Of a stretch of 64,000 bases of DNA, positions 2,634 through 62,349 are shown one piece after another. The number at the start of each line of letters is the position of its first letter. Within the stretch, counting starts at the first letter, position 1. The stretch covers positions 21,204,001 through 21,268,000 of the forward strand of contig OX597818.1 in assembly GCA_951406725.2 (NCBI GenBank), read 5' to 3'. This DNA is from Octopus vulgaris (taxonomy: Eukaryota). Under the pieces are notes generated by a model, which was not told the DNA's origin, did not search any database, and saw only the letters and a list, made by a program, of their open reading frames with translations. The translations under genes were made by a program, and so were the position numbers.

Positions 2634-2867
2634 TTTTTATATACATATATGATAATGATGACAACAACAATGATGATGATGATATACATATATATATATT
2701 TTTATATATATAAATATATATATATATTATGGAGTTGTACTTGCATAGCAAGTGACCTGATCTGACATCATGTGCTGAACAAAAATAATTGCAGTGTGGA
2801 AGGTATTTATATAAGCCATTTAAAAACACACACAAACCATCAGATTCACTTCAACATTTAAATTTAA

Positions 2868-2918
2868 TTTGTCAAAATATTTTTGTCGCTTTCAGACCGC
2901 AACCTGTTCACTGACAAA
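2868..2918 (-). ncRNA. Minimal hammerhead ribozyme, G3-C8 variant (copy 2)
   Basis: Minus: tttgtca-GTGAACA-g-gttgc(ggtctgaaa)gcgac-AAAA-atat-TT-tgacaaa. Confidence 0.7.
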
Positions 2919-2978
2919 ATTCCATGCTGCATTAGAGAAAATAACTAACTGTCACTTTCTCAGATGCAGCATGGAATT

Positions 2979-3027
2979 TTGTCGGTGAACAGGTCTCGGT
3001 CTCAAAGCAATGAAAATACTTTGACAA
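2979..3027 (+). ncRNA. Minimal hammerhead ribozyme, G3-C8 variant (copy 3, inverted arm)
   Basis: ttgtcg-GTGAACA-g-gtctc(ggtctcaaa)gcaat-GAAA-atac-TT-tgacaa; GAAA intact, stem II decayed. Confidence 0.65.
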
Positions 3028-3544
3028 CTTAAATTTAAACGTTGAAGTGAATCTAACGGTTTTTGTGTGTTTTCAAATGGCTTATAAACACCTTCCATGC
3101 TGCAATTGTGTATATATATATCTTTATATATTCTTTACTTTTATTTGTTTCAGTCATTTGGCTGCAGCCATACTGGAGTACCACCTTCAGTCAAACAAAT
3201 CGACCGTAGGACTTATTTTTTTAAGCCTAGTACTTATTCTATCACTCTCGTTTGCCAAGTTACAGGGACATAAACACACCAACACCAGTTGTCAAGGATG
3301 GTAGGGAGACAAACACATGCATACGCACACACACACATACACATACACACACACACATGCACATATACGACAGGCTTCTTTCAGTTTCTGTTCACCAGAT
3401 CCACTCACAAGGCTTTAGTTGGCCTGAGGTTATATTTTTTCTCCTTTCAGCTCAGACCTGTGGCCATGCTAGGGCACCACCGTTTTGCTACACTCTTATT
3501 ATTCAGAGCCCCCTCTAATATGTGACATTTGCAGCAAGATAGAT

Positions 3545-4908: not shown

Positions 4909-4959
4909 TATGTATATAAATATATATAGACAAGGGGAGAAATTAATGTAATCTTAGAA

Positions 4960-6756
4960 GTGAGAAAATCAGTAATACCTTTCGATAATAAACTATGGGT
5001 AAGAAAAGACTCCCCGAATAACTTTGATATCACTATGGAAGCCCCAGATTCAGCACAGGTTACAGACTTAGTAGGTATTTATTTGTTATCATACCTACAG
5101 GAAGAATTCCCAGAAATCAAGGGTAGGCTATATAGGGATGATGCACTATTCATACTAAAAAACGTCTCTAATAGGAAATTAGAACTCATTAAGAAAAAAC
5201 TATATAAATTTTTGAAAGATTCCTCTATTAATTACCTAGATGCCAACTGCAACCTAGCCATGGGACTCCATGAACCCTACGTAAAACTTAATACAAACCT
5301 CAAGTATATAAGCACATCCAGTAACCATCCAAACTTTATTAAAAGAGGGTTAGTATATAGCATTAGCAAAAGAATTTCACACCTTTCCTCTAACCTAGAT
5401 ATCTTCAATAAGTATAAAGATTTCTACAATAGCACATTAGAAAAAGCAGGGTACAAACAAAAAATTAAATACCTAGACTTAGAACACTACACAAATAACT
5501 GGAATAACATAAATGCCCAAGACAATTATCACAACTCTAACCACACTCCAAACGAAACTAATAACCACATTAAAAATATGAACAACATAGATAAGTTTAA
5601 TAACAATAATATCAAAAACAAAAACTGCAGAAATAATGCTAAGATTCATACTAAGATAACAAACAACATTAAAAATGATAATAAAACTAATACCAAAAAT
5701 GTGAAAATTAATAAAATTAAGAATACTAACATGATTAACAATAATAATAATAATAATAATAATATTAATAAGAATAAAACCAATGAAACCCAAAGAACCA
5801 ATATAACCCCAGTGAAGATTGTTAACACCCAGCCATATAACTTAAGAAAACCATACAGAAATAACCCTAATAAAACCCACACTAACAATAACAAAAATAA
5901 AAATAACTATAGAAAGAAATATAATAATCATAACAGCAACTTTACACTCTACACGAAAACTGAGGAGAGCTTCTACATCAAAAATAATAATATTAAATAT
6001 AAACGAAATAGTGATAAGATCTGGTTAATAATCCCCTACGCGATGCAGCTTAAATCTAACATAGTTCACTCCATAATGAGACTTGTAGGTAAGCACTTGA
6101 ACTTGAATAACAAATACTCAGAAATCTTTAAGAATAAAATTAGAGTAGGCCATAGCCTTACTAGTAACGTAGCTACCATCATAGCCTCGATCAACAATAA
6201 TAAGCTAGATGCTTTCTACGAAACTAGGAAAAATACCAGCATAAGACATAACAGCCAACAAGCAAATGGAATTAATCTCGTCCCTGATAGCCCACCCACA
6301 AACAACACAGACCTGATAAATAATTACGCCCCTCAACATAACATAAGCACAGATAAACTGAATAATTTATGTGGCTGCAGAGACAGAAATAAGTGTCAAT
6401 TCTCCAATAGGTGTAAAATAAAAAACGTAATATACCAATGCAACGTACTCACAAATAACCATACAAAATCTTATATAGGAGCCACGAAAAATGAAATGCT
6501 TCTTAGATACAATTCCCACCAATCTACATTTAGAAATAGAAGTAAAGCAAAGTCTACAAAAAAAATCAACTATAGTTTAGAATGGCGTATCCTAGCAAAA
6601 ACTTCGTCTTACACCATTAAAAGTAAGTGCTGTCAGTTATGTGAAACAGAAAAACTACTAATATTAATGGCCAAATCACCATTACTCAATAAGAAATATG
6701 AAAATAATATTTTTTGTCTGCATAAAGGCAGATTTGTATTCTCTAAGTTTCATTAA
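4960..6756 (+). CDS. Penelope-like RT/GIY-YIG polyprotein remnant (N-terminally truncated) with Asn-rich inserts
   Basis: 598-aa open frame with RT YRDD motif and GIY-YIG; short in-frame deletions appear likely after KFLKD and KAKST. Confidence 0.8.
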   Translation: MRKSVIPFDNKLWVRKDSPNNFDITMEAPDSAQVTDLVGIYLLSYLQEEFPEIKGRLYRDDALFILKNVSNRKLELIKKKLYKFLKDSSINYLDANCNLAMGLHEPYVKLNTNLKYISTSSNHPNFIKRGLVYSISKRISHLSSNLDIFNKYKDFYNSTLEKAGYKQKIKYLDLEHYTNNWNNINAQDNYHNSNHTPNETNNHIKNMNNIDKFNNNNIKNKNCRNNAKIHTKITNNIKNDNKTNTKNVKINKIKNTNMINNNNNNNNNINKNKTNETQRTNITPVKIVNTQPYNLRKPYRNNPNKTHTNNNKNKNNYRKKYNNHNSNFTLYTKTEESFYIKNNNIKYKRNSDKIWLIIPYAMQLKSNIVHSIMRLVGKHLNLNNKYSEIFKNKIRVGHSLTSNVATIIASINNNKLDAFYETRKNTSIRHNSQQANGINLVPDSPPTNNTDLINNYAPQHNISTDKLNNLCGCRDRNKCQFSNRCKIKNVIYQCNVLTNNHTKSYIGATKNEMLLRYNSHQSTFRNRSKAKSTKKINYSLEWRILAKTSSYTIKSKCCQLCETEKLLILMAKSPLLNKKYENNIFCLHKGRFVFSKFH

Positions 6757-7686: not shown

Positions 7687-7730
7687 GACCACTGATGCGG
7701 TCACAGGAATGTGATGAAAGAACTCTGGTC
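7687..7730 (+). ncRNA. Minimal type-I hammerhead ribozyme in Penelope 3' end
   Basis: gacca-CTGATGC-g-gtcaca(ggaa)tgtgat-GAAA-gaac-TC-tggtc; stem I 5 bp, stem II 6 bp; A9 is C. Confidence 0.75.
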
Positions 7731-14476: not shown

Positions 14477-14650
14477 ATATCAATTAAGTACACAACTGAA
14501 AGAGCTACTAATAGTTTCATGCTTTTATGATACTGGAACCAGCATATAAGAAAGATTGGTTTAAGATACATGGCATGTTTTATAAATATCAGGCATCATA
14601 AAATCATGAAACTATTAGTAGCTCTTTTGGTTGTGTATTTAAATTGATAT
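14477..14650. repeat. Fold-back with half-hammerhead (GAAA-ctat-TA-gtagc) in both arms
   Basis: ~55-bp inverted arms atatcaatt...ttttatgat / atcataaaa...aattgatat; TA-flanked. Confidence 0.65.
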
Positions 14651-24895: not shown

Positions 24896-24962
24896 AGCCT
24901 GAATGATGCTGATGACCTGCGTCGCCGCCATCAATCGATGTATGGATGTAAAAGTACTAGTT
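24896..24962 (+). ncRNA. Degenerate hammerhead motif, same family as 49444
   Basis: CTGAATGA/CTGATGA...AAAA-gtac-TA-gtt, followed by ~140 bp similar to the reverse complement of 49305-49450. Confidence 0.4.
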
Positions 24963-25167
24963 TTATCACAATAAATATATAATATTCTATTAATATATTA
25001 TTGTAAAATTGTAAAAATTGTAAATAATAAAATATGAAAATCAGATGAGGTTGGAATTTCATTGATTAATATATTCTTCTACACACAATCATACAAACCC
25101 GTGTGTGTGAACATATATGTATATATATATATATATAGAGAGAGGGAGAGAGAGAGAGAGATGTGTG

Positions 25168-25376
25168 TATTTTTCCCTTGTTAACAATTAACACAGAAAA
25201 AATAGATAAATAGTTACCAGGGTAGCAAAAAATTACACAAGTAAAAAGGTTGTAACTCCTTGTTTTTAAAGGTAGAAACTTCGGGTTTATGTGAAATTTT
25301 TTGTATGATATATATATAAATAAATAAATGTGTCAGAAGTAAAAGAATTTGAATAACACCCGTGTTTAACTCCATT
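25168..25376. mobile_element. Partial copy of the 27498-28225 family with a short inverted tail
   Basis: 25168-25320 matches 27498-27645, then inverted aaa-tgtg-tc-agaagtaaaagaatttgaataacacc. Confidence 0.75.
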
Positions 25377-25382
25377 TATTTA

Positions 25383-25428
<46 letters not shown>

Positions 25429-25739
25429 CAGATACACAGAAGTATATTAAAAACTATACCACAAAGGTTCTTAGTCTAGATTTATTAGCATTATCTCCAC
25501 TTGTAGAGGATGTATCATAATTAGCAAAAAGCAATTAAAGCAAGATCAATATGAGAAGCAAACATAGCCACAAGAAACAAGGATTCTCAAAAGTTATCAT
25601 GCTGTTAAGCACAGTATTTTAGACAATAAAGCACAGGTTTATTGTCTAGAAATAAGAAGACAGTCAAGGAATCAGCATGGCAATTGTCCCATCTAACTGC
25701 TGGTAGTCAAGACTTAGACATATACAACATATACAAAAA

Positions 25740-26226
25740 GAGTAAAATACATATATGGCTTAGGTAATTTGCATAATTAAGAGTGACCTGTCGCATGTTT
25801 TTGAACAACATAGACAATTGCAGGTATATTAAATAACACACAACATAAATTCCTGATTCATTAAAATTATCTCTATCCCCTAGGATGGGTCATAATTACT
25901 AAAAAGCAATTAAAATCAGCTTCATATGGTAAGGGGAGATGATCTAAAAAAAAATCAAGAATTCTCCAAATTTGATAGGTCATTAAAGAAAAGGACAGGC
26001 TTATAGGAGATAAGAGAAGAGTCTTAATTGCCATTTGGTAGTCACGACGCATCATCCTGAGGCAGAGATAATAAAATCAAGAATTTATGTTGTGTGGTAT
26101 TTAACAGACCTGTAATTGCCTATGTTTGTTGATCAAATACATTCCAACAAGCACTATGTTATTTCTCTTAGCTCATTTCTGCTTAAATTTTGCAAATTAC
26201 CTAGGCCATAAATGCACTCTACTCCA
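25740..26226. repeat. Old degenerate fold-back, related to the 2247 family
   Basis: atggcttaggtaatttgca...atctct vs agagat...tgcaaattacctaggccat. Confidence 0.6.
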
Positions 26227-26664: not shown

Positions 26665-27027
26665 GTAAAAGCACCGTCCGTTCGTGGCCGTTTGCCAGCT
26701 CTGTCTGGCCCCGTGTCGGTGGCACGTAAAAGCACCATCCATTCGTGTCCGTTGCCAGCATCACCTGGCCCCGTGCCGGTGACACGTAAAAGCACCATCC
26801 GTTCGTGGCCGTTGTGCCAGCTCTGTCTGGCACCTGTGCAGGTGGCACGTAAAAAACACCCACTACACTTGCGGAGTGGTTGGCGTTAGGAAGGGCATCC
26901 AGCCGTAGAAACACTGCCAAATCTGACTGGGCCTGATGAAGCCTTCCGGCTTCACAGACCCCAGTTAAACCGTCCAACCCATGCTAGCATGGAAAACGGA
27001 CGCTAAATGATGATGATGATGATGATG

Positions 27028-27119: not shown

Positions 27120-27418
27120 GTTGTTGTTTGTTCCTTCTCAAGCCACGCCTGGCTCATAGTGCCGGTTTCTCGGTTTCCTAAGCACATAGGTTCCCCACCT
27201 AGACAGGACGCCGGTCCATCGCAGGTGAGCTGCAAGATGCAGGAGGAAAGAGTGAAAGAAAGTTGTGGCAAAAGAGTCAGCAGTAGTTCGCCATTACCTT
27301 CTGCCGGAGCTGCGTGGAGCTTAGGTGTTTCGCTCATAAACACACACATCGCCCAGTCTGAGATTCGAACCTGTGATCCGAGTCCTCTGCTCTAACCACT
27401 AGGCCATGTACCTCCACT
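27120..27418 (-). mobile_element. tRNA-derived SINE with (ACA)n tail
   Basis: Minus: tggcctagtggttagagc A box, ggttcgaatctc B box. Confidence 0.75.
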
Positions 27419-27443
27419 ATATATATATATATATATATGTATA

Positions 27444-27496
<53 letters not shown>

Positions 27497-27682
27497 ATTT
27501 TTCCCTTATTAACAATTAACATAGAAAAAATAGATAAATAGTTACCAGGGTAGCAAAAAAAATCACACAAGTAAAAAGGGTGCAGCTTCTTGTTTCTAAA
27601 GGTAGAAACTCCAAGTTTACATGAAATATTTTGTATAATATATAAATAGAGTTAAATGCAGGTGTTATTCAAATTCTTTTAA

Positions 27683-27765
27683 TTCCGACACATTTCGAAG
27701 ATATCACTGGTATTATTCCAAAAGAATAAAATGGTGTAAAACAATGTAATCTTCGCTTCAGGGAA
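27683..27765 (-). ncRNA. Hammerhead ribozyme (left arm of fold-back)
   Basis: Minus: ttcc-CTGAAGC-gaagat...atcttc-GAAA-tgtg-TC-ggaa. Confidence 0.75.
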
Positions 27766-28104
27766 ATGAAGAAATGAAACTCGTCAATAAGACATTTTAA
27801 CAGAATATGATGGATATGTATAGTGATTAACTGAACGATATTAAGTTTATTTAAAAAAAAACGTTAGAAAATATAACGTCAAAGGTAGGCTATAGAAAGT
27901 GGAGGGGTAAAGGAAGCATGCTTCTTAACCACACAGCCATGCAGTCAAACAGACTTTCCTTTACCCCTCCTCTTTCTATAGGCTATCTTTGACGTTATAT
28001 CCTCTAACGATATTTTAAAACAAACTTAATAGCGTTCAGTTAATCACTATACATATCCATCATATTTGGTTGAAATGTCTTATTGACAAGTTTCATTTCT
28101 TCAT

Positions 28105-28186
28105 TTCCTTGAAGAGAAGATTACATTGTTTTACACCATTTAATCCTTTGGAATAATACCAGTGATATCTTCAAAACGAGTCGGAA
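28105..28186 (+). ncRNA. Hammerhead ribozyme (right arm of fold-back)
   Basis: ttcc-TTGAAGA-gaagat...atcttc-AAAA-cgag-TC-ggaa; consensus with the left arm is CTGAAGA...GAAA-cgNg-TC. Confidence 0.7.
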
Positions 28187-28223
28187 GTAAAAGAATTTGA
28201 ATAACACCTGCGTTTAACTCCAT

Positions 28224-28255
<32 letters not shown>

Positions 28256-29211
28256 GTGTGTGTGTGTGTGTATATATGTATGTATGTGTGTATGTACTTA
28301 TCTATGTGTATATATGTGTGTGTATATATGTATATAAATATATATATATGCATGTAGAGTATGTATGTGTGTGTGTGTGTAACCTATTGTTCATTTAATG
28401 TTCTCTTATTCGTGATTGAATGGTAGAGCAGATGAAATTTATTGAAGCAAATTTTCAATGTGACAAATATCCTTCCTATTGCCAACCCTCACCTACTTCC
28501 AAGCAAAGTAATATTTCATGAGAGAGAACAGAAAAATGAACAGCATCAATTGTATGACAGTGATGCTTATTTACCATTATCACATGATGTAAAAACAAGG
28601 GGTACATATATAAATATATATAAACATATACAACACACTTCTTTCAGTTTCCGTCTACCAAATCCACTCACAAGGCTTTGGTCAGCCCAAGCTATAGAAG
28701 ACACCCATCCAAGGCGTCATGCAGAGGGGACCACATGGTTGGAAGCAAGCTTCTTAACCACACAGCCATGCAGTCAAACAGACACATTATGGTTAAAGAA
28801 AAGAAAGTTTCCTTTCAAACCATGTAGTTTTGGGTTCAATCCTACTGTACAGCACCTTGAGTGCATGACTTCTATAACCCTGGGCCAATCAAAGCCTTGT
28901 GAGTGAATGGAACCTTGGTATATGGAAGCTGAAAAAGACTTCTCATATGTATACCTCTGTGTGTGCGTGCACGCGTGCGTGTGTATTCATGTTTGTGTGT
29001 GTGTGTGTGTGTGCATGTGTGTATCATTACTTCCATACTATGGTTTCATGCTAAAATCCAGGAATTTGGATTTTGTCATCTTCAGTCAGCTTTGGTAAAA
29101 ATGTTTGCATCAAAAGTCAATATAGAATGATGCTATGGTGAGAGCATATTGTGGACTTTGATGTGTTACACAGAAAAAAGCAATGTCTAACCACACTATT
29201 TATACATACAC

Positions 29212-33694: not shown

Positions 33695-36013
33695 ATCATC
33701 ATCCTCCTCATCATCCTCATTTAACGTCCGCTTTCCATGCTAGCATGGGTTGGACGGTTCAACTGGAGTCTGGGGAGCCCGAAGGCTGCACCAGGCCAGT
33801 CAGATCTGGCAGTGTTTCTACAGCTGGATGCCCTTCCTAACGCCAACCACTCCAAGAGTGTAGTGGGTGATTTTATGTGCCACCGACACAGGTGCCAGAC
33901 GAGGCTGGCAGACGGCCACGCTCGGATGGTGTTTTTATGTGCCACCGACACAAGTGCCAGATGAGGCTGGCGAACGGCCACGATTGGATGGTGTTTGTTA
34001 CGTGCCCACAGCACGGAGGCCAGTCGATGCGGTACTGGCTACGGCCACGTTCGGATTGTTTTGTTTTCTTGTGTGCCACCAGCACTGGTACCACAAAGAT
34101 ACAAATTCCATTGATGTTCATCTATTTTGATTTGGTTTGATTTTCACTTGCCTCAACAGGTTTTCACAACTGTCACACACTTGCCTCAACAGGTCTTCAC
34201 AAGTGTCACATACTTGCCTCAACAGGTCTTCACAAGTGTCATAAGAAGGAAGGTATGCACAGGTAGACTGACTACGTCCCAGGTAGGGGCCACGGGTTAT
34301 GGCCTGACTAGTCTTGCCGGGTCTTTGGATGGTGTTTTTATGTGCCACCAACACAGGTGCCAGATGAGGCTGGCGAACGGCCACGATCGGATGGTGTTTG
34401 TTACGTGCCCACAGCACGGAGGCCAGTCGATATGGTACTGGCTACCGCCATGTTCGGATGGTTTTCTTGTGTGCCACCGGCATTGGTACCACAAAGATAC
34501 AAATTCCATTGATGTTCATCTATTTTGATTTATTATGATTATGATTATGATTATGATTATTATTATTATCACTTGCCTCAACAGGTCTTCACAAGTGTCA
34601 TTTGATTTGATTAGCACTTGCCTCAACAGGTCTTCACAAGTGTCATAAGAAGGAAGGTATGCACAGGTGGACTGACTACGTCCCAGGAAGGGGCCACGGG
34701 CTATGGCCTGACTAGTCTTGCCGGGTCTTCGGACAGGTGCCAGATGAGGCTGGCGAACGGCCACGATCGGATGGCGTTTGTTATGTGCCCACAGCACGGA
34801 GGCCAGTCGATGCGGTACTGGCTACAGCCACGTTCGGATGGTTCTCTTGTGTGCCACCGGCACTGGTACCACAGAGATACAGATTCCATTGATGTTCATC
34901 TATTTTGATTTGTTTTGATTTTTTGATTTGTTGATTTGTTGATTTTCACTTGCCTCAACAGGTCTTCACAAGTGTCACAAGAAGGAAGGTATGCACAGGT
35001 GGACTGACTATGTCCCAGGTAGGGGCCACCACGATCGGATGGTGTTTGTTATGTGCCCACATCACAGAGGCCAGTCGATGCGGTACTGGCTACAGCCACG
35101 TTCGGATGGTTTTCTTGTGTGCCACTGGTACTGGTACCACAAAGATACAAATTCCATCTATTTTGTTCATCTATTTTGATTTGGTTTGATTTGATTTTCA
35201 CTTGCCTCAACAGGTCTTCACAAGTGTCACACACTTGCCTCTGCCTCAACAGGTCTTCACAAAGTGTCACACACTTGCCTCTGCCTCAACAGGTCTTCAC
35301 AAGTGTCACACACTTGCCTCAACAAGTGTCACACACTTGCCTCAACAATTGTCACACACTTGCCTCAACAGGTCTTCACAAGTGTCATAAGAAGGAAGGT
35401 ATGCACAGGTGGACTGACTACGTCGCCGGGTCTTCGGATGGTGTTTTTATGTGCCACCGACACAGGTGCCAGATGAGGCTGGCGAACGGCCACGATCGGA
35501 TGGTGTTTGTTGTGCCCACAGCACGGAGGCCAGTCGATGCGGTACTGGCTACGGCCACGTTCGGATGGTCTTCTTGTGTGCCACCGGTACTGGTACCACA
35601 AAGATACAAATTCCATTGATGTTCATCTATTTTGATTTGGTTTGATTTTCACTTGCCTCAACAGGTCTTCACAAGTGTCACACACTTGCCTCAACAGGTC
35701 TCCACAAGTGTCACACACTTGCCTCTGCCTCAACAGGTCTTCACAAGTGTCACACACTTGCCTCAACAGGTCTTCACAAGTGTCATAAGAGGGAAGGTAT
35801 GCACAGGTGGACTGACTACGTCGCCGGGTCTTCGGATGGTGTTTTTATGTGCCACCGACACAGGTGCCAGATGAGGCTGGCGAACGGCCACGATCGGATG
35901 GTGTTTGTTGTGCCCACAGCACGGAGGCCAGTCGATGCGGTACTGGCTACGGCCACGTTCGGTTGGTATTCTTGTGTGCCACCGGCACTGGTACCACAAA
36001 GATACAATTCCAT
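33695..36013 (-). repeat. Higher-order tandem array of the RTE 3' UTR (six ~270-460 bp units) in the host intron
   Basis: Marker gataca near 34098, 34497, 34877, 35143, 35603, 36001; internal ~31-bp sub-repeat cacacttgcctcaacaggtcttcacaagtgt. Confidence 0.9.
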
Positions 36014-36437
36014 GTTTGGAAACAAACTTCTTAAACACACAGCCATATAGCACTCTGATCATTTTTATATCTGCTTTCCAGACTGGCATGAGTTGGCTGT
36101 GTAATCACAATCCAAGTTCTTTCTTATTGGGAGCAACTACCCTCAAACACTGGGGTTTGTGTGACTTTGGTTTAGCTTCCAAAGCTAGATACCCTTTCTA
36201 GATACCTTTCTATTGTCAAACACTTTACAGAGTGTACCAGTTGTTTTTTCTCGTGACACCAACACAAGGGAGATTGTGAAGCCCTCAATGACAGAGGAGT
36301 AAGGAACCTCTCAATCTTACTTTTCTTCTAGTCACCAATCACTCTAGATTGTGTGTAGGGTGCCAAGCATAAAAGATAGGATGCCTTGTACATTGTATGT
36401 GTAGGGAATACTCAGTAACCTCTGACATATGTATTTA

Positions 36438-37410: not shown

Positions 37411-37724
37411 ATAGTATATTCATGAATAAGTCACTAACCGAAATAAGTGGATCTATTGTTTAGAAAAATACTATTTATTTGTTTAAGGGTTATACAGGAT
37501 AAATTGCGAAAATAACTAACAGTTCAAATACTAAGAAATAAGCATACTCAATTTAATTTATATGAAATCATGTTAGCTAACAACTCCACAAACAAACACA
37601 CCCAAATACAGAATTTTCCACATATGTAAATGTGCATACACACACGCACACACATACACACACACACAGAAGTAGGTAAAGATAGAAAGGAAAAAGAAAA
37701 TTAAAAATTTAAACTGTAACCTAC

Positions 37725-37898
37725 CTTAACAGGTTTTTCAGAAAAATTCTTACAGGAGTCTATTATTTTCCTCAGATTTGTCATTTCATCTAAAAGAGCA
37801 ATATATGACTGATAACTGACACTAGTTTTTTCACTCAAGGAATCTTCACAAGTTGGATAATGAATATCTTCCAAAGTTTCGGGAGTCTTGCAGGCCAT
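37725..37898 (-). CDS. Coding exon 1 of a 204-aa coiled-coil/C-terminal C2H2 zinc-finger protein (MACKTPETLE...SEKPVK)
   Basis: Acceptor ttcag ends at 37906, 7 nt of UTR, ATG at 37898; 58 codons; donor AAG|gtaggt at 37724; phase 0. Confidence 0.8.
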
Positions 37899-38989
37899 TG
37901 TAGTACTGAAGTTAAAAGAATAAGTCATATAAAACAATGTGTGTGCATGTGTGTGTGCGTGCATGTGTGTATGTGTGTGTGTGTGTGCATGTGTATAAAA
38001 GGTGAAGAATAGGGCTTTTGGTATTACATTTATTCCATGGATTACAATTGTTCCAATAACATAAGAGTGACAAACAATATAATATGCATGAAAACATGAA
38101 AGAGAGAAATGATACTATCATATCAATTATATAATATTGGTTTCAAATTCTGGAACAAGGCCAGCAATTTCTGAGGAGGGGGTAAGTTAATTACATTGAC
38201 TCTAGTACTCAACTGGTACTTATTTTATCCTCCCCAAACAGATGAAGGGCAAAGTTGACCTCAGCAGAATTTGAACTCAGAGCATGAAGATGGACAAAAT
38301 GCCACTAAGCATTTCACCCAGATTGCTAATGGTTCTGCACACTTGCTGTCTTATCAATTATATAATATTGATTATGTAATGAGATATCCATATTCATCTC
38401 ATAATAATCCTTGTGAACAAATAGATTAGCTATATAATGGGTGAGTTCAGTTATATAAATGACCTGGTGGTAGATGTCTAAATAATTCAGGAAGGAGGAC
38501 TTGCTGTTAGAAATACAAAAGAAGTGAGAGAATGACAGTTTAATTATATTTTCACAAGATCATTTTTACATGTCTCATTCATTAATCAATCTATAAATTC
38601 AGACATTTGTCTGGTTGAAAATGGCAAAACATCATTAAGTTTGTTAACAATGGTACAGGCAATAATAAATTAAGTAGGAAGTACTTATGTTAGGTCCCTT
38701 GCAACATGATTCTGATTAGTATTTTAGGGTAAGGTTAAGTTTTAGAGTTTAAGGTTTAGCATTTAGTATTATGTTTAGGATTAAAAGAAATGAGATTCAA
38801 AACATTCCGTTTTTTCCCCAGAATATAATCTGCTGCTAAAATCAGAAATTCAAATAAAGTTTGTAGAAAAACAGGTTATATGGGTTTAGTCAGATATTCT
38901 GCCTATTGTTTGTTCAGAAACATTAACACCAATTCCCTGTCTATGATGGGTATTTTGTTTAGTTTCCTATATCTATTTAAAAATTTTCG

Positions 38990-41299: not shown

Positions 41300-41999
41300 T
41301 GATCTTTTCTTTTTGAACGGCAGCTTTCAACACAATTTCTAGTTAACTAAACACTTTTAAACTTCGTATACTGGTAGAATGTGTCAAAATAAAACATTTT
41401 TTTCTCTTGGCTTTCTTGAGAAAATTGTAATTTGTAAGTTTAACGTAGTTTAATTTTTCGAATTTTAACCAATTCTATGGCCTCTATTGAGCTGAAATCA
41501 TTTGCTGCGTCTAAAACAGACAACATCCTGTCACTAACCCAAACCCTAAATTTTAGCCTTTCGTTTTTTTTTTTCTTAATTGTTAAATTAATTTAAGGAT
41601 AACAATTAAGAAAAAAAAAACGAAAGGCTAAAACGAAAACAAAAACTCAAAACAAAAACAAAACGAATAATTTTAGACACACGCGTAACAATTAAATTGA
41701 TTTAACAATTAAGAAAAAAAAAACGAAAGGCTAAAATTTAGGGTTAGGGTGAGGGTTAGAGTTAGTGACAGGATGTTGTCTGTTTTAGACGCAGCAAATG
41801 ATTTCAGCTCAATAGAGGCCATAGAATTGGTTAAAATTCGAAAAATTAAACTACGTTAAACTTACAAATTACAATTTTCTCAAGAAAGCCAAGAGAAAAA
41901 AATGTTTTATTTTGACACATTCTACCAGTATACGAAGTTTAAAAGTGTTTAGTTAACTAGAAATTGTGTTGAAAACTGCCGTTCAAAAGGAAAAGATCC
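41300..41999. mobile_element. Palindromic (two left halves) derivative of a Merlin-like MITE
   Basis: ~295-bp near-perfect arms; termini gatcttttc../..gaaaagatcc; 8-bp TSD tcgacctc/tcgaactc. Confidence 0.85.
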
Positions 42000-47375: not shown

Positions 47376-47376
<1 letters not shown>

Positions 47377-47789
47377 GATCTTTTCGGTTTGAACGGCAGT
47401 TTTTAACATAATTTCTAGGTAACTAAAATATTTTAAACTTCGTATACTGATAGAATGTGTTTATAAAACATCTTTTTCTCTTGGCTTTATTGAGAAAATT
47501 CTATAGTTTGTAAAATATTTGTTGTTTTTTTTCAATTTCTGCAATTTCAACCAATCACTGACGTCTATTGAGGTAAAAAAAAACATTCTGTGCTGTATGA
47601 ATATGTCCCTCGTTTAAGAAACAGATTGGGTTTATTTACATTTGTGAAGAAAAAAAAGATACCCTTCCCCCCACCCTTAACCCTAAAACAGATTGAAATG
47701 CAATAGATCGATACTAGGGTCATAATTATGGGTGACAATTTCATATATGACACCGCTAGAAAAAACTGCCGTTCAAACCGAAAAGATCC
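47376..47789 (+). mobile_element. MITE with GG...CC 28-bp TIRs (Merlin-like)
   Basis: ggatcttttcggtttgaacggcagtttt ... aaaactgccgttcaaaccgaaaagatcc, inserted in (GA)n. Confidence 0.9.
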
Positions 47790-49237: not shown

Positions 49238-49290
<53 letters not shown>

Positions 49291-49304
49291 CAAACATAAA
49301 CATA

Positions 49305-49614
49305 CATGGGTGTGTATGATTGTATATAGAAGAATATATTACTCAAAGAAATTGCAGCTTTGTCTGATTTTCACGTTTTATTTACAATCTTATAATAATA
49401 TAATATAATGAAATGATAGAATATTAAATGTCCATTCTGATTAAACTAGTACATTCATGCATTAAACTATACAATCTTCAGGTTCATGAAAGTACTAGTT
49501 TAATCAGAATGGACATTTAATATTCTATCATTTCATTATATTATATTATATTATTATAAGATTGTAAATAAAACGTGAAAATCAGACAAAGTTGGAATTT
49601 CTTTGAGTAATATA
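49305..49614. mobile_element. Near-perfect fold-back with central hammerhead
   Basis: Arms 49335-49459 and 49485-49614; TA/CA-flanked. Confidence 0.85.
49444..49484 (-). ncRNA. Minimal hammerhead ribozyme at centre of fold-back
   Basis: Minus: aac-CTGAAGA-ttgtat(agttta)atgcat-GAAT-gtac-TA-gtt; the inverted arm keeps GAAA-gtac-TA-gtt. Confidence 0.7.
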
Positions 49615-50234
49615 CATATATATATATATACACACACACACACATACATATATATTTACATTATATATACACAGATAAAGGTATGGAGTGCTCACCATCA
49701 CCAGTCTGATAATAGCAAGCAAGCTGAAATTTCAAAGTCACTGTCAACCTTTTACTTGAAACTATCAATAAATATGTACTCTCTGACAAAGTATTGAGTA
49801 ATCCTTCAGTTTAATGTTAAATTCTTTTTATATTGACATAAAAACAAACACACACACACATAAATGAGACTGATAGAATAAGTACTAGGCTTAAGGTGGC
49901 GAGCTGGCAGAAACGTTAGCACGCCGGGCGAATGCTTAGTGTTATTTCGTCTGTCTTTACGTTCTGAGTTCAAATTCCGCTGAGATCGACTTTGCTTTTC
50001 ATCCTTTCGGGGTTGATAAATTAAGTACCAGTTGCATACTGGGGTCAATCTAATCGACTGGCCCCCTCCCCCAAAAATTTCAGGCCTTGTGCCTAGAGTA
50101 GAATAGAATAAGTACTAGGCTTTAAAAAATAAGCCCTGGGGTTGATTTGTTCATCTAAAACTTTCAAGGCGGTACCACAGACTGGCCACAGTCATAATGG
50201 CTGAAACAAGTAAAAGATAGAAGATATATATATA

Positions 50235-55945: not shown

Positions 55946-56355
55946 GGATCTTTTCGGTTTGAACGGCAGTTTTTTCTAGCGGTGTCATATGAAATTGTCA
56001 CCCATAATTATGACCCTAGTATCAATCTATTGCATTTCAATCTGTTTTAGGGTTAGGGTAGTTAGGGGTGGGGGAAGGGTATCTTTTTTTCTTCACAAAT
56101 GTAAATAAACCCAATCTGTTTCTTAAACGAGGGACATATTCATACGGCACAGAATGTTTTTTTTTACCTCAATAGACGTCAGTGATTGGTTGAAATTGAA
56201 GAAAAAAAACAAATATCTTACAAACTATAGAATTTTCTCAATAAAGCCAAGAGAAAAAGATGTTTTATAAACACATTCTACCAGTATACGAAGTTTAAAA
56301 GTGTTTAGTTACGTGGAAATTATTTTAAAAAACTGCCGTTCAAACTGAAAACATC
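55946..56355 (-). mobile_element. Second copy of the same MITE, opposite orientation
   Basis: Reverse-complement match to 47376-47789. Confidence 0.9.
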
Positions 56356-56986
56356 ATAAAAGGATAACGTGATAAAAAAAAATAAATAAATCCTAAAATT
56401 TCAGCTTCTTATTGAAAATTTTTTTAAATTATAGTTTTAAAATATGCGTGTGTGTGTGCATATAAAGGAAAGTCATATTTACTGACAGAAAAGAAAAGAA
56501 TCGATTTATCAACCTAATGAAATTTATTTCATACATCCATACACACTCACTGACAAACACACACACAGACTCAGCATGAGCGATATGCTTTTTTTATATA
56601 TAATATTCTTTTTTAACCTCCAAGGCTTCTCCTGAGGTTTTTAAGGGCATAGTGCAAAAAAAAAAAAACATTAGCCAAAATCAGTACTGAATGGACAGGG
56701 TTCCAAAATATTTATACATTTTCAAAATTGTTTTCTTGGACAAAATCAGTCTGGAACTGGGGATTCATAAATTTGCAAGGATTTTTTTCATGAAAACCTT
56801 CCCTCCATCATTTGCAAAGGTATGAGTAAGAGGGAATGTAAAAAATTCACCAGCAAAATAGAAAATCCAACTTATATGATTGTGCAATTCAGAAAGCCCA
56901 CCAAGGCATTCTGTTGTGAAAATTTCCTGGCAATGACAGGATACTCAGTGATGGTGTTTGAATATATATATGTGTGTGTGTGTGTC

Positions 56987-61832: not shown

Positions 61833-61863
<31 letters not shown>

Positions 61864-62294
61864 ATATATATATATTTATATGCTTTCAGTGCAAATGGTT
61901 TTGTTATACAACACCGTATTTTACAATCCTGTAAATAATAATAATGGTATTTTTATATAAGCTTAAAGTTTATGGCATTCACCGTGCAATAACTAAGGAA
62001 AATAGTCTAATAAAGGGGCATATAAGACTTCGACAGAAAAAAGAAGGCTTTCCCATCCATGTGTAAAGGTAACACACTTAGTCATGTTAACAAAAGGATG
62101 TAGGTTCACGTCCCACACGGATGGGAAAGCCTTCTTTTTTTCTGTCGAGGGCTTATATGCCTTGTTATTAGACTATTTTCCTTAGTCATTGCACTGTGAA
62201 CGGCATAAGCTTTAAGCTTATATAAAAATACCATTATTATTATTTACAGGATTGTAAAATATGGCACCATATAATAAAACCATTCACACCGAAA

Positions 62295-62349
<55 letters not shown>

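Follow-up and report, generated by a model that had tools for sequence, protein, structure and literature searches.

How do Penelope-like elements come by their inverted ends? The step is stated as unresolved in PMC8557442 and PMC11167929 (here and below, statements on published work refer to the accessible parts of each source), and one locus in octopus DNA raises the question in a concrete form. At this locus, a fold-back with a ribozyme motif in each arm encloses a loop that matches neighbouring DNA. An earlier note, written from the sequence, proposed that during insertion the polymerase had jumped by microhomology onto this nearby target and had then switched back to make the inverted arm, the loop being a footprint of how inverted Penelope-type ends form. 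We analysed the fold-back, its loop and the putative source of the loop within a 64-kb window, the whole stretch of DNA under study (64,000 nt). The question is whether the loop records the making of the inverted pair or its interruption.

The fold-back and its assignment

The fold-back consists of two 276-bp arms placed head to head. The left arm (27638..27915, ribozyme sense on the minus strand) points outwards; the right arm (27956..28231, plus strand) enters the right microsatellite. The two differ at 24 of 276 columns (8.7%), and five of these 24 differences lie in CpG context. A one-sided 3' extension of ~148 nt continues the left arm (27490..27637, minus strand), ends in the left microsatellite and is absent from the right arm. 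This tail recurs in a second copy of the family (25162..25405), which comprises the tail itself (25162-25318, 15 mismatches in 140 columns) and the outer 58-80 nt of the right arm, the centre being missing. Both ends of both copies enter TA/TG repeats; a target-site duplication was looked for, and the ends of the fold-back are buried in the microsatellites. The short arm ends at the same position in the two copies (27490-28231 and 25162-25405), which suggests that second priming takes place at a fixed site or that a switch recurs at a TA-rich motif.

Motif scans identified a decayed minimal type I hammerhead motif in each arm; both motifs have a long loop, and helix II spans 6 bp and helix I 4 bp. 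The left-arm motif (27683..27765, minus strand, fold z -1.69) is changed at core position 9 and the right-arm motif (28105..28186, plus strand, fold z -1.34) at core positions 3 and 12. Because both carry core changes, neither copy would be expected to cleave. The motifs lie on opposite strands ~340 nt apart, each pointing outwards. Rfam gave no match in the whole window at the gathering threshold; at E up to 10, its 39 matches within 27400-29000 included no hammerhead family and were mostly microsatellite hairpins. Folding of the two ribozyme regions was likewise not significant (17/200 and 9/200 shuffles were as good).

Penelope-like elements are described as targeting microsatellites and as forming inverted truncated pairs that have a tail on one side and two minimal hammerheads on opposite strands (PMC8557442; PMC4209133; PMC11167929). 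The present locus shows a minimal type I hammerhead motif in its terminal repeat, though with decayed cores, a head-to-head inverted 5'-truncated copy with a tail on one side only, longer than described, and an insertion in AT-rich or microsatellite DNA. The fold-back is thus probably a remnant of a Penelope-like element, and the hammerhead motif in each arm, the inverted truncated pair and the one-sided tail agree with the Penelope-type identity that had been proposed. Translation of the arms gave no clear coding remnant. A non-LTR retrozyme, described as a head-to-tail tandem array whose units all carry an intact type I hammerhead (bioRxiv 2026.07.22.740005), was rejected, the fold-back being inverted and its hammerhead cores decayed. 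Active Penelope-like families are present in an octopus repeat annotation, the accessible part of which mentions neither palindromes nor hammerheads (PMC13282606).

Elsewhere in the window, an open frame of 608 codons (4930-6756, plus strand) has a long Asn-rich stretch and a Cys cluster, together with motifs that we take to be an RT-like YRDD and a GIY-YIG-like C-terminus. It showed no DNA match to the fold-back element, no Pfam family and no significant solved relative, and the one homolog among 8000 candidates scored is from Octopus bimaculoides (45% identity). A weak hammerhead-like motif lies near 7692. The frame resembles the Asn-rich inserts reported for rotifer Penelope ORFs (PMC3846280). 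Two further observations concern other sequences: a GC-rich repeat with ~60-nt internal tandem units recurs in the window (26665-27025, 34100-36050 and others), with 93-95% identity between some copies, and an open frame at 37701-38114 (minus strand) has a second half resembling a host coding exon.

Origin of the loop sequence

The loop at 27912-27954 and the sequence at 28741-28783 are identical at 42 of 43 positions, in direct orientation and 829 nt apart from start to start. This match, reported before, was reproduced (blastn against the window, E ~1e-16), and the leading GGAA (27912-27915) is indeed common to the loop start and the end of the left arm. The donor (28741..28783, plus strand) comprises the head of a SINE-like repeat on the minus strand (28620..28770), which has many paralogues in the window, and ~12 nt of its upstream flank. 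We take this repeat to be a tRNA-derived octopus SINE. A second SINE-like copy in opposite orientation is found at ~28788-28953; the donor sits between these two head-to-head copies, which are ~17 nt apart (28620-28953) and form an old imperfect inverted repeat with a 74% inverted match over 80 nt.

The two parts of the loop were compared with the donor and with the three next-best ungapped SINE heads of the window, two further heads that required a gap being aligned separately. In the SINE-like first 31 nt, the loop differs from the donor at one position and from the three heads at six; in the last 12 nt, it does not differ from the donor at all, compared with 9-11 differences from the same heads. 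The 12-nt flank has exact matches at two places only in the 64 kb, the loop and the donor, and was not found at the five other SINE heads compared in the window. The match does, therefore, reach past the SINE into flank that is specific to loop and donor within the window, as had been claimed, although only ~12 nt and not 14 lie clearly outside the SINE head. As far as the 64-kb window can show, these comparisons support the loop as a templated copy of the nearby 28741-28783 locus.

Copying ran from the donor to the loop, because the donor runs on into the whole SINE while the loop holds only the head and its upstream flank, and because at the mismatch the donor has the A of the five other heads compared and the T occurs in the loop alone. 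The reverse direction was rejected on the same grounds. We also rejected a SINE insertion that produced a 3-nt target duplication, since the loop piece contains head and upstream flank only.

Anatomy of the centre

A perfect 12-nt palindrome (27913..27924, centre 27918/27919) lies on the axis of the arms and may represent both the original head-to-head junction and the priming homology. It is the only perfect palindrome of at least 8 nt at the fold-back centre, there is none at the donor, and the arm ends form its three outermost base pairs. The donor instead has a hairpin with a 2-nt loop, which the single mismatch turns into the perfect palindrome at 27913-27924. Among 129 single-base changes of the donor 43-mer, two, including the observed one, give a palindrome of at least 12 nt in this context.

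Deleting 34 nt (27922-27955) leaves a perfect 18+18 palindrome that is continuous with the arms. This symmetry is partly trivial, the arms themselves being symmetric, and the new information lies in the six central bases. The insertion so defined (27922..27955, plus strand) consists of 33 nt identical to 28751-28783 and one T; its register may slide to 27925-27958, with TTC repeated on both sides, and the insert matches retained nearby DNA exactly over 33-35 nt, including donor-specific flank. At the left junction, at least 4 nt are common to arm and donor, or 9/10 or 12/13 if the palindrome is native. Homology at the right junction (27955/27956) is 1 nt at most, and the one T there is not in the donor.

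The window provides base rates for these features. Of the 479 other occurrences of the arm-end 4-mer, 5 are followed by a hairpin nested on it. The donor contains the first such plus-strand 4-mer beyond the element, 510 nt past its end and 829 nt from the centre, and a gap at least this long is found at 65 of 479 sites (14%). With at most one mismatch, the 13-mer has one site in the 64 kb outside the centre, which is the donor; the 10-mer has three. Known Penelope inverted junctions include a 15-bp overlap and palindromes of 18 and 38 bp (PMC3846280).

Explanations for the loop

On balance, the evidence tips towards a 33-nt templated patch, with one T, that was inserted where the arms join through the element's own palindrome, near-homology of 10-13 nt having primed it. 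We prefer this reading because of the mismatch and because removal of the 34 nt restores the 18+18 palindrome without loss. A Penelope-like element would have inserted into a TA/TG microsatellite as an inverted pair, head to head, with a short palindrome as the junction; both the anatomy and comparable junctions in the literature suggest this. At the palindrome axis or slightly beyond it, a free 3' end that matched the SINE head 829 nt downstream over ~10-13 nt but for one base would then have annealed to the donor on a resected single-stranded flank and been extended by 30-33 nt. Once released, it would have been rejoined to the opposite arm, with a single T added and nothing lost. The event may belong to the closing of the insertion, when cDNA ends were joined, or to a later break at the palindrome centre, and the candidate enzymes are a host end-joining or break-repair polymerase and the RT of the element. 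Under either timing, the patch interrupts the inverted structure rather than making it.

The mechanism put forward in the earlier note, in which the cDNA end jumped during insertion by 4-nt homology to target DNA ~510 nt beyond the insertion point and copied 39 nt, appears to us unlikely, though a serious competitor. The return would be a switch back or a joining to a second cDNA that stopped at the same 5' end of the RNA, either giving the inverted arm, and the A-to-T difference would be a later mutation. Its strand geometry fits, with the left-arm cDNA being the plus strand and the loop being reached last; the donor does hold the first matching 4-mer beyond the element, as such a jump would like and as counts against the patch; one mismatch in 43 is compatible with the age of the arms (P 0.10-0.17 for at most one difference if patch and arms are equally old); and templated insertions are known for L1, with 22 cases (bioRxiv 2024.08.27.596794). 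However, two coincidences are required, the nested hairpin at the donor (5/479) and its perfecting mutation (2/129), no homology guides the exact return to the fold-back at 27955/27956, L1 templates usually lie at most 15 bp from the site (same source), and none of the six other fold-backs of the window has such a loop, though none is of the same family or carries a ribozyme motif. The patch reading has difficulties of its own. Its return junction offers no more than 1 nt of homology and has a T without explanation, no other copy of the family in the window extends to the centre to attest a native palindrome, and the argument was made after the fact and rests on one base. Its distant template is also unusual: ~85% of polymerase-theta insertion templates lie within 10 bp (PMC5068794), with a peak within 20 bp (PMC11541566), and a template 500-800 nt away far exceeds this range and counts against it. 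Perfect palindromes are broken at the centre in mouse cells and stabilised by spacers of ~35-52 bp, but 93% of 118 rearrangements there were deletions and not insertions (review PMC8701086), which again counts against a patch.

Hand arithmetic, done after the fact, gives the following odds. For a jump by 4 nt, the chance hairpin (~1%) and the perfecting change (~1.6%) multiply to ~2 in 10,000. For a native palindrome, a near-match within ~1 kb is expected at ~0.2% (12/13, even base use) or ~6% (9/10, two other sites in 64 kb), which, multiplied by the chance of the donor being the first 4-mer (65/479), becomes ~3 in 10,000 to 1 in 100. The ratio favours the native palindrome by ~2 to 50 and leaves aside that a distant template is better explained by long homology than by 4 nt. 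We nevertheless weigh the two readings cautiously because the pattern was recognised post hoc and depends on a single base. Of the original proposal, the templated copy of a nearby locus stands, while a 4-nt jump that yields the inverted arm is disfavoured by the 18+18 palindrome and the mismatch.

The template may have been RNA, the patch being reverse-transcribed from a local read-through transcript or pre-mRNA over the donor through template switching by the element's RT. One report for L1 has a neighbouring precursor transcript co-inserted (PMC10191854), and Penelope elements have captured host sequence between repeats (PMC3846280); nevertheless, the piece crosses the SINE 5' boundary and lacks the 3' end, as an ordinary SINE insertion would not, and RNA and DNA templates are indistinguishable from sequence alone. 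We regard this origin as very improbable. We give equally little credence to a 43-mer that came from elsewhere, as a SINE subfamily or paired-SINE unit with the same flank, or that is an assembly error at a palindrome. The flank search covers 64 kb, the head-to-head SINE pair at the donor might be a repeated unit, and complex inverted Penelope insertions trouble assemblies (PMC8557442). Against this, the flank is absent from the five other heads compared, a nearest perfect match at 829 nt would be a coincidence, and the 8.7% divergence of the arms and the loop-donor mismatch fit neither a read chimera, for which 24 differences in 276 columns are too many, nor a collapsed copy.

The age of the patch bears on its timing. 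It shows no difference in 33 nt while the arms differ by 7.4-8.7% (P 0.05-0.08 if equally old), a weak hint that the patch may be younger than the arms; this hint falls short of significance and is biased by the way in which the finding came to notice. In a perfect palindrome of ~560 bp, the centre would be expected to break early, when such a break is indistinguishable from the insertion itself. A more speculative reading, which we consider rather improbable, makes the patch the fossil of a Penelope insertion intermediate, in which a self-complementary cDNA end first invaded single-stranded target flank (at least 500 nt). As part of the same joint reading, such an end would normally pair with itself or with a second cDNA and thereby make the head-to-head junction.

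Other fold-backs in the window

Six other fold-backs occur in the window, with spacers of 15-110 nt; one further blast hit is a microsatellite and was dropped from the set. Each spacer was compared with the whole window, and exact matches of at least 10 nt were sought within 3 kb. A convincing outside donor was found for none of the six (the best hits are of 10-17 nt and mostly A-rich), and none of these fold-backs has a nested edge palindrome or a ribozyme motif. Belonging to other families, they are weak controls that neither support nor strongly refute a jump by 4 nt. The notion of a footprint of inverted-end formation is not borne out: none of the six other centres could be traced to outside DNA, and nothing ties the event to the moment of insertion.

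The fold-back at 41301-41998 (arms 98.6% alike, no ribozyme motif) contains an exact 34-nt copy of its own arm, 41600-41633 being identical to 41703-41736, a further templated piece at a fold-back centre that speaks for the patch reading. This centre measures 95 nt, and the arms derive from half of a repeat that is present elsewhere (47376-47789, 55946-56356) and has 29-nt terminal inverted repeats. Four fold-backs (2787-3107, 14477-14650, 49271-49677 and 61833-62345) are mostly bounded by TA microsatellites and have arms 87-93% alike and spacers of 15-63 nt; single-arm paralogues lie at 2219-2449 and 24951-25137. In the fold-back at 25795-26142, an older tandem copy just upstream (25479-25595, 70% alike) repeats the left arm and some of the 110-nt spacer, an arrangement that resembles partial tandem plus inverted. 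This spacer is probably element sequence, partly repeated in the older tandem copy.

Comparison with known systems

One old junction cannot settle how inverted Penelope ends are formed, and the claim has no second case. The patch nevertheless supplies a pattern for a genome-wide test: whether palindromes are native, where spacers originate, on which side and at what distance donors lie, and how the ages of patch and arms compare. If such patches are later repair, they represent ordinary palindrome stabilisation with an unusually distant template; if they are fossils of an intermediate, the fold-back centres of the genome form a natural library for reading the inverted-end step.

Compared with head-to-head inverted pLTR Penelope remnants (PMC3846280; PMC8557442; PMC4209133), the fold-back is likewise an inverted truncated pair in an AT-rich microsatellite, with a tail on one side and a short palindrome at the junction, and its hammerhead spacing of ~340 nt falls within their 100-700 bp (PMC4209133). 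In contrast to these remnants, its tail is ~148 nt instead of the 30-40 nt described, no ORF was found that links it to a named clade, and its junction is interrupted by a copy of local flank, a feature that the accessible parts of these sources do not describe. No published local copy at a Penelope inverted junction was found in the titles, abstract openings and passages of the open-access literature searched; local-DNA copies have been proposed at human fold-back junctions (PMC3907307).

Among templated insertions, polymerase-theta end joining and synthesis-dependent MMEJ (PMC5068794; PMC11541566) likewise leave short direct-orientation copies of nearby DNA with homology mainly on one side. 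As in such events, the insert is identical to nearby retained DNA and at least 4 nt of microhomology could prime it. Here, however, the template lies 500-800 nt away (510 nt if counted from the element end, 829 nt if from the centre) and not within ~20 bp of the break, the 33-nt patch is longer, the priming homology is longer and mismatched, and the resolving microhomology is at most 1 nt plus an untemplated T instead of 2-3 nt. We therefore liken the patch to TMEJ or SD-MMEJ-type insertions in the way it may work, without filing it as made by polymerase theta. L1 templated insertions and fold-back junctions (bioRxiv 2024.08.27.596794; PMC11702581; PMC10191854) also duplicate neighbouring DNA at a retrotransposon junction, whereas here the element is of another class, the copy lies between two inverted arms and the template is much farther away. 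The centre-break stabilisation of perfect palindromes (review PMC8701086) shares with the patch the symmetry broken at the axis and a spacer in the stabilising size range; published events are mostly deletions, while the present one is an insertion without loss. The patch looks like a known class of repair scar; what differs is its distance from the template and its setting in the junction of a probable Penelope-like fold-back, for which the literature searched gave no published case.
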